Shown in pieces: positions 2,220 through 45,685 of a stretch of 64,000 nucleotides of DNA. Location: the NCBI RefSeq assembly GCF_003018255.1, contig NZ_CP027440.1; one strand, given 5' to 3'. This DNA is from Escherichia coli. Lineage in GTDB: Bacteria > Pseudomonadota > Gammaproteobacteria > Enterobacterales > Enterobacteriaceae. The notes beneath the pieces are model-generated. The model was not told the DNA's origin and did not search any database. It saw only the letters and a program-made list of their open reading frames with translations. The first letter of the stretch is position 1, and the number at the start of each line of letters is the position of its first letter. The translations under genes and the position numbers were made by a program.

Positions 2220-3236
2220 TTAATCGGGATATCCCTGTGGATGGCGTGACTGCCAGTGCCAGGTGTCCTGCGCCATTTCATCGAGTGTGCGCGTTACGCG
2301 CCAGTTCAGTTCACGGTCGGCTTTGCTGGCGTCCGCCCAGTAGGCCGGAAGGTCGCCCTCGCGACGCGGTGCAAAATGATAATTAACCGGTTTGCCGCAG
2401 GCTTTGCTGAAGGCATTAACCACGTCCAGCACGCTGCTGCCTACGCCAGCGCCGAGGTTATAGATGTGTACGCCTGGCTTGTTCGCCAGTTTTTCCATCG
2501 CCACGACGTGACCGTCCGCCAGATCCATTACGTGGATGTAATCGCGTACGCCAGTACCGTCTTCGGTCGGATAATCGTTACCAAAAATCGCCAGCGAGTC
2601 GCGACGGCCTACAGCAACCTGGGCGATGTATGGCATCAGGTTATTCGGAATGCCTTGCGGATCTTCGCCCATATCGCCCGACGGATGCGCGCCAACCGGG
2701 TTGAAGTAGCGCAGCAGGGCAATGCTCCAGTCCGGCTGGGCTTTTTGCAGATCGGTGAGGATCTGTTCCACCATCAGTTTGCTTTTGCCGTAAGGGCTTT
2801 GCGGTGTGCCGGTCGGGAAGCTTTCAACGTATGGAATTTTGGGCTGATCGCCATAGACGGTGGCGGAGGAGCTAAAAATAAAGTTTTTGACGTTCGCGGC
2901 GCGCATGGCGCTAATCAGGCGCAGGGTACCGTTGACATTGTTGTCGTAATATTCAAGCGGTTTTTGTACCGATTCGCCAACGGCTTTCAGCCCGGCGAAG
3001 TGGATCACAGTGTCGATAGCGTGATCGTGCAGGATCTCGGTCATCAACGCTTCGTTACGGATATCGCCTTCAACAAACGTTGGATGTTTGCCGCCTAAAC
3101 GCTCGATAACAGGCAGTACGCTGCGCTTACTGTTACAGAGGTTATCAAGAATGATGACATCATGACCGTTTTGCAGTAATTGCACACAGGTATGACTTCC
3201 AATGTAACCGCTACCACCGGTAACCAGAACTCTCAT
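2220..3236 (-). CDS. galE: UDP-glucose 4-epimerase
   Basis: ORF trimmed to internal Met giving MRVLVTGGSGYIGSH (Rossmann GxxGxxG), 338 aa; ATG at 3236 is preceded by the gal promoter sequence. Confidence 0.95.
   Translation of the reverse strand: MRVLVTGGSGYIGSHTCVQLLQNGHDVIILDNLCNSKRSVLPVIERLGGKHPTFVEGDIRNEALMTEILHDHAIDTVIHFAGLKAVGESVQKPLEYYDNNVNGTLRLISAMRAANVKNFIFSSSATVYGDQPKIPYVESFPTGTPQSPYGKSKLMVEQILTDLQKAQPDWSIALLRYFNPVGAHPSGDMGEDPQGIPNNLMPYIAQVAVGRRDSLAIFGNDYPTEDGTGVRDYIHVMDLADGHVVAMEKLANKPGVHIYNLGAGVGSSVLDVVNAFSKACGKPVNYHFAPRREGDLPAYWADASKADRELNWRVTRTLDEMAQDTWHWQSRHPQGYPD
3202..3217. promoter_or_regulatory. GalR/GalS internal operator OI inside galE
   Basis: Plus strand atgtaaccgctaccac is the reverse complement of GTGGTAGCGGTTACAT, located inside the 5' end of galE. 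Confidence 0.7.
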
Positions 3237-41634: not shown

Positions 41635-42996
41635 ATGTCTTTCGATTCTTTGGGTTTAAGCCCTGATATCCTGCGCGCCGTTGCCGAGCAGGGTTACCGT
41701 GAACCCACCCCTATTCAGCAGCAGGCGATCCCTGCGGTGCTGGAAGGCCGCGACCTGATGGCCAGCGCCCAGACCGGTACCGGCAAAACAGCGGGCTTTA
41801 CGCTGCCGCTGTTGCAACACCTGATCACTCGCCAGCCGCACGCCAAAGGGCGTCGTCCGGTACGCGCGCTCATTCTTACCCCGACCCGTGAACTGGCGGC
41901 GCAGATTGGCGAAAACGTCCGTGATTACAGCAAATATCTGAACATTCGTTCGCTGGTGGTGTTTGGCGGTGTCAGCATTAACCCACAAATGATGAAGTTG
42001 CGCGGCGGCGTTGATGTGCTGGTGGCAACGCCGGGACGTCTGCTGGACCTGGAACATCAAAATGCAGTGAAGCTGGATCAGGTTGAAATCCTCGTCCTTG
42101 ATGAAGCTGACCGCATGCTCGACATGGGCTTTATCCACGATATCCGTCGCGTGTTAACAAAACTGCCAGCGAAGCGCCAGAACCTGTTGTTCTCCGCGAC
42201 CTTCTCTGACGATATTAAAGCCCTGGCGGAAAAACTGTTGCACAACCCGCTGGAAATCGAAGTGGCACGCCGCAATACCGCGTCTGATCAGGTGACCCAG
42301 CACGTTCACTTTGTCGATAAGAAACGCAAACGCGAATTGCTGTCGCATATGATTGGGAAAGGGAACTGGCAGCAGGTGCTGGTGTTTACCCGTACCAAAC
42401 ATGGCGCTAACCATCTGGCTGAACAGCTTAATAAAGATGGCATCCGTAGTGCGGCGATCCACGGTAATAAATCGCAAGGTGCGCGTACTCGTGCGCTGGC
42501 TGATTTTAAATCGGGCGATATTCGTGTACTGGTGGCAACTGACATCGCTGCGCGCGGCCTGGATATTGAAGAGCTGCCGCACGTGGTCAACTATGAACTG
42601 CCAAACGTACCGGAAGATTATGTCCACCGTATCGGGCGTACCGGTCGTGCGGCTGCTACCGGTGAAGCGTTGTCGCTGGTGTGTGTTGATGAACACAAAC
42701 TGCTGCGTGATATCGAAAAACTGCTGAAAAAAGAGATCCCGCGCATTGCGATTCCGGGTTATGAGCCGGACCCGTCAATCAAAGCCGAACCGATCCAGAA
42801 CGGTCGCCAGCAACGTGGCGGCGGTCGTGGGCAAGGTGGTGGTCGCGGTCAACAGCAACCACGCCGTGGAGAAGGTGGCGCAAAATCTGCAAGTGCGAAA
42901 CCTGCAGAAAAACCGTCTCGCCGCCTCGGCGATGCCAAACCGGCAGGCGAACAACAACGTCGCCGCCGTCCACGTAAACCTGCCGCTGCGCAGTAA
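41635..42996 (+). CDS. rhlE: ATP-dependent RNA helicase RhlE (DEAD-box)
   Basis: 453-aa ORF with Q-motif, [15 protein letters not shown] and HRIGRTGR motifs and an RGG-rich basic tail. Confidence 0.96.
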
Positions 42997-43004
42997 TCTT
43001 TTGA

Positions 43005-43150
<146 letters not shown>

Positions 43151-43230
43151 TCACAACAAGCACTTGTCAGCCATTTGCGAGCGCGGCAAAAAGATTTCTC
43201 TGTTTTAACGCCCACAAGCCACCCGATGCG

Positions 43231-43536
43231 TTACTTCTCCGCAGCCAATTGTCCGCGCAACGCCATTAAAAGGTACCCCAGGCGATTCTTGCCCTGACCA
43301 TTACCGCTATCTCCCCAGTAAGCATCATTTTGCGTATGCTCAACCAGTTTTGCGGACGCGGTTGCCAGCAAGAGTGTACGCAGTTCTGCATGTTGTTCGA
43401 ATTTAGCGCGAAGCGCTTTACGCATCATCCTGCTGGTTATTGCGAGCCGCTTTCCAGAAACAGAAAAACCATTACCCCTGAAAACCGAAAAATGCCACAA
43501 TATTGGCTGTTTATACAGTATTTCAGGTTTTCTCAT
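43231..43536 (-). pseudogene. ybiA: YbiA-like (DUF1768 N-glycosidase family) gene, apparently 5'-truncated
   Basis: 101-aa ORF whose C-terminal ~64 aa (MRKALRAKFEQHAELR...NRLGYLLMALRGQLAAEK) match YbiA as I recall it; N-terminal 37 codons run through the dinG promoter and LexA box and abut the dinG ATG. Confidence 0.5.
43501..43520. promoter_or_regulatory. non-canonical LexA box of dinG
   Basis: tattggctgtttatacagta, with a good right half (ATACAGTA) and degenerate left half, about 15 bp upstream of the dinG ATG. Confidence 0.65.
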
Positions 43537-45685
43537 GGCATTAACCGCCGCGCTTAAAGCGCAAATTGCCGCCTGGTATAAGGCGCTTCAGGAACAGATC
43601 CCCGACTTTATTCCCCGTGCGCCGCAGCGGCAGATGATTGCGGACGTCGCCAAAACGCTGGCCGGAGAAGAAGGGCGGCATCTGGCGATTGAAGCACCCA
43701 CCGGCGTTGGGAAAACGCTCTCCTATTTGATTCCCGGCATCGCCATTGCCCGCGAAGAGCAAAAAACGCTGGTGGTGAGTACCGCCAACGTGGCATTGCA
43801 GGATCAGATCTACAGTAAAGATTTGCCTCTGCTGAAAAAGATCATTCCCGATCTTAAATTCACTGCTGCTTTTGGGCGTGGGCGCTACGTTTGTCCGCGT
43901 AATCTGACAGCGCTTGCCAGTACTGAACCCACGCAACAGGATCTGCTGGCGTTTCTTGACGACGAGCTGACGCCGAACAATCAGGAAGAGCAAAAACGTT
44001 GTGCGAAGCTGAAGGGCGATCTCGACACTTATAAATGGGATGGTCTGCGCGATCATACGGATATCGCCATTGATGACGATCTCTGGCGTCGTTTAAGTAC
44101 CGACAAAGCCAGCTGCCTCAACCGCAACTGTTACTACTATCGTGAATGCCCGTTTTTTGTTGCTCGTCGGGAGATTCAGGAAGCGGAAGTGGTGGTGGCA
44201 AACCATGCGCTGGTGATGGCGGCGATGGAAAGCGAAGCCGTACTACCTGACCCGAAAAATCTGCTGCTGGTGCTGGACGAAGGTCATCACCTGCCAGATG
44301 TGGCGCGGGATGCGCTGGAGATGAGCGCCGAAATCACCGCGCCCTGGTATCGGCTACAGCTGGACTTGTTCACGAAACTGGTCGCTACCTGCATGGAGCA
44401 GTTTCGCCCGAAGACCATCCCACCGCTGGCGATCCCTGAACGTTTGAATGCGCATTGTGAAGAGCTGTATGAGCTTATCGCCTCGTTAAACAACATTCTC
44501 AATCTCTACATGCCTGCCGGGCAGGAGGCAGAGCACCGTTTTGCGATGGGCGAACTGCCTGATGAAGTGCTGGAGATCTGCCAGCGGCTGGCAAAACTCA
44601 CCGAGATGCTGCGTGGCCTGGCGGAGTTATTTCTTAACGATTTAAGTGAGAAAACCGGTAGCCATGACATTGTACGTCTGCATCGGTTGATTTTGCAGAT
44701 GAATCGCGCGTTGGGGATGTTCGAGGCGCAAAGCAAACTCTGGCGGCTGGCGTCTCTGGCGCAATCTTCCGGTGCGCCGGTGACTAAATGGGCGACGCGG
44801 GAAGAGCGCGAAGGGCAGCTGCATCTCTGGTTTCACTGTGTGGGTATTCGTGTCAGCGATCAGCTGGAAAGGCTGCTGTGGCGCAGTATTCCGCACATTA
44901 TTGTCACTTCCGCGACCTTACGTTCGCTGAACAGTTTTTCGCGTTTACAGGAGATGAGTGGTCTGAAAGAGAAAGCGGGCGACCGCTTTGTGGCGCTGGA
45001 TTCGCCCTTTAACCACTGCGAACAGGGCAAAATTGTTATTCCCCGGATGCGCTTTGAGCCTTCCATCGACAACGAAGAGCAGCACATTGCTGAAATGGCA
45101 GCCTTTTTCCGTGAGCAGGTGGAGAGCAAAAAACATCTCGGTATGTTGGTACTGTTTGCCAGCGGGCGTGCGATGCAGCGCTTTCTCGACTATGTGACGG
45201 ATTTACGCCTGATGTTGCTGGTGCAGGGCGATCAGCCACGTTATCGCTTAGTTGAACTGCACCGCAAACGCGTTGCCAACGGTGAGCGTAGCGTGCTGGT
45301 GGGCTTACAGTCCTTTGCCGAAGGTCTTGATCTGAAAGGCGATCTGCTCAGTCAGGTGCATATCCACAAGATCGCTTTTCCGCCCATCGACAGTCCGGTG
45401 GTGATCACCGAAGGTGAATGGCTGAAAAGCCTCAACCGCTATCCGTTTGAGGTGCAAAGCCTGCCGAGCGCTTCGTTTAACCTGATTCAGCAGGTTGGGC
45501 GACTGATTCGAAGCCACGGTTGCTGGGGGGAAGTGGTTATCTACGACAAACGCTTGCTGACCAAAAATTATGGCAAGCGACTACTGGATGCATTACCGGT
45601 ATTTCCGATAGAGCAACCGGAAGTCCCTGAAGGTATAGTTAAAAAGAAAGAAAAAACGAAATCCCCACGCCGTCGGCGGCGTTAA
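43535..45685 (+). CDS. dinG: ATP-dependent DNA helicase DinG (Fe-S, superfamily 2)
   Basis: 716-aa ORF MALTAALKAQIAAWYKALQEQIPDFIPRAPQRQMI with Walker A APTGVGKT and DEGHH box. Confidence 0.96.
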   Translation: MALTAALKAQIAAWYKALQEQIPDFIPRAPQRQMIADVAKTLAGEEGRHLAIEAPTGVGKTLSYLIPGIAIAREEQKTLVVSTANVALQDQIYSKDLPLLKKIIPDLKFTAAFGRGRYVCPRNLTALASTEPTQQDLLAFLDDELTPNNQEEQKRCAKLKGDLDTYKWDGLRDHTDIAIDDDLWRRLSTDKASCLNRNCYYYRECPFFVARREIQEAEVVVANHALVMAAMESEAVLPDPKNLLLVLDEGHHLPDVARDALEMSAEITAPWYRLQLDLFTKLVATCMEQFRPKTIPPLAIPERLNAHCEELYELIASLNNILNLYMPAGQEAEHRFAMGELPDEVLEICQRLAKLTEMLRGLAELFLNDLSEKTGSHDIVRLHRLILQMNRALGMFEAQSKLWRLASLAQSSGAPVTKWATREEREGQLHLWFHCVGIRVSDQLERLLWRSIPHIIVTSATLRSLNSFSRLQEMSGLKEKAGDRFVALDSPFNHCEQGKIVIPRMRFEPSIDNEEQHIAEMAAFFREQVESKKHLGMLVLFASGRAMQRFLDYVTDLRLMLLVQGDQPRYRLVELHRKRVANGERSVLVGLQSFAEGLDLKGDLLSQVHIHKIAFPPIDSPVVITEGEWLKSLNRYPFEVQSLPSASFNLIQQVGRLIRSHGCWGEVVIYDKRLLTKNYGKRLLDALPVFPIEQPEVPEGIVKKKEKTKSPRRRRR

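Follow-up and report, generated by a model that had tools for sequence, protein, structure and literature searches.

The rhlE–dinG interval of the analyzed window (the whole stretch of 64,000 nucleotides of Escherichia coli DNA) raised the question of whether the 101-aa open reading frame (ORF) listed there on the minus strand (43231..43536) is a gene and, if not, how it arose and what its origin means for dinG. The neighboring genes cecR, ybiB, fiu, dps, and ompX and the gene order agreed with the 18-minute region of E. coli. The ORF is flanked by two intact plus-strand genes, rhlE (41635..42996, 453 aa), which forms the left edge of a variable spacer, and dinG (43535..45685, 716 aa, equal in length to K-12 dinG), and its ATG (43536-43534) shares two nucleotides with the ATG of dinG (43535-43537). 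The distance from the rhlE stop codon to the dinG ATG was 538 bp in the window versus 833 bp in K-12, and thus the gap is too short for an intact ybiA, as a preliminary description of this DNA had claimed.

Membership of the ORF in the NADAR family was evident from its score against the Pfam profile (PF08719), which was 63.8 bits against a gathering cutoff of 35.1 (E = 2.9e-17). The match covered only ORF residues 33-97 and profile positions 88-162 of 163, in agreement with the earlier assignment of only the C-terminal ~64 residues to YbiA, and K-12 YbiA (160 aa) covers profile positions 2-162. The matched segment falls short of the whole NADAR fold described in PMC11125620. The ybiA-derived part of the ORF (43231..43428, minus strand) comprises the last 65 codons and the stop codon of the NADAR-family N-glycosidase YbiA, and its nucleotides were 89-91% identical to the 3' end of intact ybiA.

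When the rhlE–ybiA–dinG region was aligned with K-12 MG1655 and the intact allele of M7424, one 298-bp gap and no other rearrangement was observed, and full-length ybiA homology across the ORF was refuted. The gap takes out ybiA codons 1-95 and about 13-14 bp of the leader (K-12 coordinates), which corresponds to the loss of the 5' half of ybiA put forward in the preliminary description. Two 8-mers, CGCATCAC inside ybiA and CGCATTAT in the ybiA leader, lie exactly 298 bp apart in the intact alleles (positions 3159 and 3457 in K-12; 692 and 990 in M7424). They are imperfect direct repeats, matching at 6 of 8 positions with 5 bp exact, and the window keeps a single hybrid copy (CGCATCAT, 43421..43428) at the deletion junction, which was identical across all truncated alleles inspected.

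The bases past the junction read CCTGCTGG in the window versus GTTGGTGG in K-12, while they read CCGGGTGG in the intact allele of SCPM-O-B-8794 and CCTGGTGG in the truncated allele of Escherichia albertii. The right arm of the SCPM-O-B-8794 allele is CGCATTATCCGGGTGG, which accounts for the CCTG after the junction. A 299-bp deletion with a one-nucleotide insertion, or three substitutions past the junction, had also been considered for these bases; both were dropped, as the SCPM-O-B-8794 arm makes extra events unnecessary. The SCPM-O-B-8794 and E. albertii sequences thus leave a plain repeat-to-repeat 298-bp deletion to explain the junction.

We concluded, with a probability of about 0.93, that 43231-43428 is a dead ybiA remnant produced by a single 298-bp deletion between imperfect 8-bp repeats. 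The deletion between CGCATCAC and CGCATTAT took codons 1-95 of ybiA together with its ribosome-binding region, and replication slippage or recombination at short repeats is the likely mechanism, judging from the sequence. Relative to intact orthologues at the same locus, the start codon, leader, and 95 codons are gone, a disabling lesion by which the remnant qualifies as a pseudogene.

YbiA is an N-glycosidase acting on riboflavin-pathway intermediates and is needed for swarming of K-12; in vitro, it hydrolyzes ADP-ribosylated guanine, while it gives no antitoxin protection against DarT1 or YarT (PMC11125620, PMC11543638). Its NMR structure (PDB 2B3W) is cited in PMC11543638, in which the active-site residues of a Phytophthora NADAR enzyme are given as E43, K50, R79, W89, R93, E125, D130, and W133. 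Mapped by inference onto the E. coli protein, the equivalents of E43, K50, and R79 fall within the deleted residues 1-95, and the active-site set of the remnant is incomplete. As active-site residues are contributed by both halves of the domain, one half would not be expected to function; the remaining C-terminal 46% of the NADAR fold probably could neither fold nor catalyze in the absence of the N-terminal part.

None of the leading 36 codons of the 101-aa ORF (43429..43536, minus strand) derives from ybiA; they correspond to the dinG promoter, within the retained dinG upstream region, read as its reverse complement. The 101-codon frame arose by accident: the frame of the remnant stays open through the reverse-complemented promoter to a chance ATG. 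The overlap of the ORF start with the dinG LexA box and ATG that had been noted earlier was real, as the LexA box (43501-43520) lies inside the ORF. The retained ybiA–dinG divergent control region (43429..43534, given on the plus strand) amounts to 106 bp of the 119 bp in K-12; its only departures from K-12 are at 43430 and 43433, and 43434-43534 is 100% identical. The LexA (SOS) box of dinG (TATTGGCTGTTTATACAGTA, plus strand) is an exact match to the dinG SOS-box motif in Thomassen et al. 2010 (PMC3009722). Promoter positions were obtained by placing on the window sequence the hexamers predicted by Shimada et al. 2014 (PMC3946193), which give ATGCCA-16-TACAGT for dinG and CTGAAA-18-TATTGT, the sole published promoter prediction, for ybiA. 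The predicted dinG promoter occupies 43492..43519 on the plus strand (ATGCCA at 43492-43497, a 16-nt spacer, and TACAGT at 43514-43519), and the predicted ybiA promoter occupies 43497..43526 on the minus strand (CTGAAA at 43526-43521, an 18-nt spacer, and TATTGT at 43502-43497), with the LexA box sitting within its spacer. A generic consensus scan for promoters and terminators over 42950-43650 on both strands made no calls, the dinG promoter included. The SOS box and predicted core hexamers are present and unaltered, which places the locus among LexA-regulated dinG promoters.

The preliminary description had the ybiA promoter deleted as well, and this part was not supported, as the predicted CTGAAA-18-TATTGT lies inside the retained 106 bp. 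The right breakpoint falls just ~13-14 bp before the former start codon of ybiA, and what ybiA lost is its start codon, ribosome-binding region, and 95 codons, with the predicted promoter kept. Since this promoter is retained, the remnant may still be transcribed.

The distribution of the deletion was determined among 5,426 complete E. coli genomes. A 61-nt junction probe (window 43400-43460), which has no 28-mer in common with the intact alleles and cannot seed on them, detected the truncated ybiA in 1,122 genomes, at one place in each and at full length in 1,119. Intact-type ybiA, with the 298-bp segment present, was found in 3,429 genomes. In a further 542 genomes (O157:H7, O145, and IAI39), the T3SS effector gene espX2 takes the place of ybiA, and in 325, a PaaA2-like antitoxin and RelE/ParE toxin pair does so; the four contents of the rhlE–dinG spacer account for 5,418 of the 5,426 genomes. 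The preliminary description had treated the deletion as a peculiarity of this one genome, and this was ruled out by the 1,122 junction-positive genomes; the junction is a lineage marker and the remnant a pseudogene in RefSeq. The positive genomes include 536, Nissle 1917, O18, APEC O2-211, and M-17, all of which we take to be phylogroup B2 strains. The truncated allele is old and has gone to fixation in a large E. coli lineage, to which 536, Nissle 1917, O18, and APEC O2 belong.

All four haplotypes (e.g., O145 RM9467, NMBU-W10C18, and E69) share the sequence from ~43436-43440 to the dinG ATG, corresponding to the last 95-100 bp, and an rhlE terminator hairpin is common to them at the other side of the spacer. 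A functional dinG promoter can thus be read as lying within this shared stretch. This bears on the possibility that the deletion alters dinG regulation, through a lost upstream element or interference from divergent transcription, and was selected for that effect. The deletion does place new sequence within 106 bp of the dinG ATG. In the three other haplotypes too, everything beyond about -95 to -100 is exchanged for different sequence, and the region farther upstream is clearly free to vary. The LexA box is unchanged, as are the two predicted hexamers, and the sharing of the last 95-100 bp by four unrelated upstream contexts argues for a promoter that is complete inside that stretch; we consider a selected regulatory effect very unlikely. 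The deletion ended before the shared divergent control region, leaving dinG its LexA box and core promoter, and because of this, dinG is expected to be regulated normally. The dinG gene itself is intact and strongly constrained (dN = 0.0014 and dS = 0.16 versus K-12).

Several side observations were made on the spacer. Over 42900-43700, the window was 100% identical in E. coli JNE23-011 and JNE112863, the only two such genomes among the complete genomes listed. A REP/BIME repeat block (43027..43184), also present in K-12, lies between rhlE and the ybiA remnant. In an Rfam scan of 42900-43700, the block gave sub-threshold scores for the REP-derived families naRNA4 (40.7 bits; gathering score of 59.5) and ES036 (35.7 bits; gathering score of 37.6), and no match was obtained over the ybiA remnant or the junction. 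The rhlE 3' end and REP block of the window strain were K-12-like, with 3/153 differences from K-12 and 11/152 from Nissle over 42997-43150; from ~43151, the window was identical to Nissle. This pattern suggests a recombination breakpoint just left of the ybiA remnant in the window strain.

Other lesions were seen at the same locus. Escherichia sp. MOD1-EC7003 carries an independent ybiA lesion: ~38 nt at the start and ~170 nt at the end of the gene are left, and where the middle should be, there is a duplicate of the REP/BIME block normally found between rhlE and ybiA. E. coli 8178 (NZ_CP151931.1) has a TEM-116 beta-lactamase gene exactly at the site of the remnant, directly upstream of the dinG promoter, which looks like an engineered marker at a neutral site. 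In E. coli AHB21 (NZ_OZ547226.1), ISKox3 (ISL3-family) between ybiA and dinG splits the promoter region, and ybiA also has an internal stop codon. The dinG gene of NMBU-W10C18 was annotated as frameshifted. E. coli F637 has a 27-bp in-frame deletion in an otherwise intact ybiA (456 versus 483 bp) that is annotated as a functional NADAR family protein.

The wide occurrence of the frame also lends itself to another reading, in which a functional small protein retaining the C-terminal NADAR helices is made from the 101-aa ORF or from a 65-aa ORF starting at the junction ATGs. More than 1,000 genomes, as well as E. albertii, carry the ORF intact, and the predicted ybiA promoter is kept. A 65-aa peptide could conceivably start from the in-frame ATG-ATG at the junction (43428-43423), and gene callers emit both 65-aa and 101-aa products. 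However, the 101-aa ORF starts upstream of the predicted ybiA promoter, so its translation would need an antisense transcript beginning inside dinG. The 14 nt 5' of its ATG (CGGCGGTTAATGCC-ATG, minus strand), read by eye, contained no AGGAG-like Shine-Dalgarno motif, and at the junction ATGs, an AGGA lies only 0-2 nt away. The first 36 codons are promoter DNA, the conservation of which is explained by dinG, and half of the NADAR domain is gone.

The substitution pattern also weighed against a functional peptide. The remnant differed from the closest intact allele with dN = 0.065 and dS = 0.19, and from K-12 with dN = 0.080 and dS = 0.25; between the intact ybiA genes of K-12 and M7424, dN was 0.011, so that dN of the remnant was 6-7 times higher. 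With changes polarized using three intact alleles, nine sites were private to the truncated alleles (six nonsynonymous and three synonymous) and six varied among them (four nonsynonymous and two synonymous). From these 15 substitutions only, the combined nonsynonymous-to-synonymous count of 10:5 fitted the neutral expectation (p = 0.36) and rejected the 1:3 ratio of intact ybiA (p = 0.0008). Fisher's test gave p = 0.03 against full-length intact ybiA and p = 0.13, which is not significant, against the same region of the three intact alleles. Copies in the databases add replacements including R39C, L57R, G75E, G81R, R85H, L86P, A91V/P, and K101Q. These small numbers all point towards a probable relaxation of constraint on the remnant. 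Given the predominance of nonsynonymous changes and the many replacements among database copies, we regard a functional small protein as exceedingly unlikely.

Annotation had given the small-protein reading some apparent support. Older GenBank records and gene callers list 101-aa and 65-aa products (e.g., ABE06287.1, ABJ00179.1, and ABG68831.1 of strain 536) under the names "DUF1768 domain-containing protein", "Swarming motility protein ybiA", and "N-glycosidase YbiA". The "YbiA" and "swarming motility protein" names, attached to these ORFs across many GenBank records from the lineage, are mis-annotations carried over from the full-length protein. The PGAP pipeline of RefSeq rejects the ORF as a gene: in JNE23-011, it places a pseudo-CDS at exactly 43231-43428 ("NADAR family protein; incomplete; missing N-terminus"), and the "missing N-terminus" pseudogene label was found in all truncated genomes inspected (JNE23-011, RM14723, an ST80 strain, Nissle 1917, and O18). 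The remnant is thus an ordinary lineage-fixed pseudogene that RefSeq had already annotated; a whole-word search of the literature on ybiA returned no description of the 298-bp deletion.

A protein look-up returned 101-aa copies labeled E. albertii, and the same junction was found in two E. albertii assemblies and the type strain NBRC 107761. Between the type strain and Nissle 1917, the spacer and remnant (43151-43429) differed at 4/279 positions, the rhlE 3' end at 18/279, and dinG (43835-44134) at 24/300. As unconstrained DNA is far more similar here than the flanking coding sequence, the truncated allele was probably exchanged well after the species diverged. We lean towards a single origin of the truncated ybiA, which would have crossed the E. 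coli/E. albertii boundary through homologous recombination of a ~0.3-0.5 kb tract, with the rhlE–dinG gap acting as a replacement hotspot anchored on the invariant dinG promoter. The 5' end of dinG in the E. albertii assembly GCA_002937375.1 was near-identical to that of Nissle (3/600 differences), and this E. coli-like sequence indicates gene flow from E. coli to E. albertii at the locus. For the truncated allele, we attempted to infer the direction of exchange from derived states and distances. Derived changes (minus-strand bases) were present on each side, 43433 C and 43375 A in E. coli and 43386 A in E. albertii, and favored neither direction. The remnant is ~10% diverged from K-12, which is as compatible with neutral decay after the lineages split as with an E. 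albertii origin.

The short form in E. albertii, an outgroup species, could also be taken to mean that this form is ancestral, with the 5' half of the K-12 form having been inserted later. This was effectively refuted by the profile match, since the short form corresponds only to positions 88-162 of a 163-position domain whose family is found at full length throughout bacteria. Among E. coli genomes, 3,429 from diverse lineages have intact ybiA, and Escherichia sp. MOD1-EC7003 retains both the 5' and 3' ends of the gene. In addition, the 4/279 differences between the E. albertii and E. coli short alleles, against 6.5-8% in the flanking genes, make the sharing recent rather than ancestral, and the probability left to an ancestral short form is vanishingly small.

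Loss of ybiA by deletion has practical consequences for work on this gene. An intact ybiA is missing from the locus in about 37% of complete E. coli genomes, including model uropathogenic and probiotic strains, and this absence should be heeded in studies of YbiA/NADAR function (riboflavin-intermediate glycosidase, guanine de-ADP-ribosylation, and swarming). The junction provides a clean lineage marker. The import for wider biology is small, with a dispensable accessory enzyme gene dead in a major lineage and the SOS gene dinG apparently unaffected. Two by-products of mild interest are the haplotype structure of the spacer and the sharing with E. albertii, the latter being a tidy example of between-species gene flow at a neutral site.

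The remnant is an ortholog of K-12 YbiA (b0798, NADAR/DUF1768) in the syntenic position, on the minus strand and flanked by rhlE and dinG. Over its 65 C-terminal residues, it shares 85-88% identity with intact E. coli YbiA alleles, and the VEH...NDAYWGD motif region is kept. It differs from intact YbiA in lacking residues 1-95 and the translation start, and in carrying E to Q, E to A, E to G, and A to T replacements, none of which occurs in the intact YbiA alleles. The RefSeq pseudogenes ACXDC2_RS07035 (JNE23-011) and ACFX5S_RS16265 (Nissle 1917) are the same feature at the same coordinates, with no difference. Among known routes to bacterial pseudogenes, slipped-strand deletions between short direct repeats are the closest comparison. 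The ybiA repeat differs from these in being imperfect (6/8), with the mechanism read here from sequence alone; as in those deletions, the lost segment is bounded by a repeat at a spacing equal to the deletion length, and one hybrid copy is left behind.
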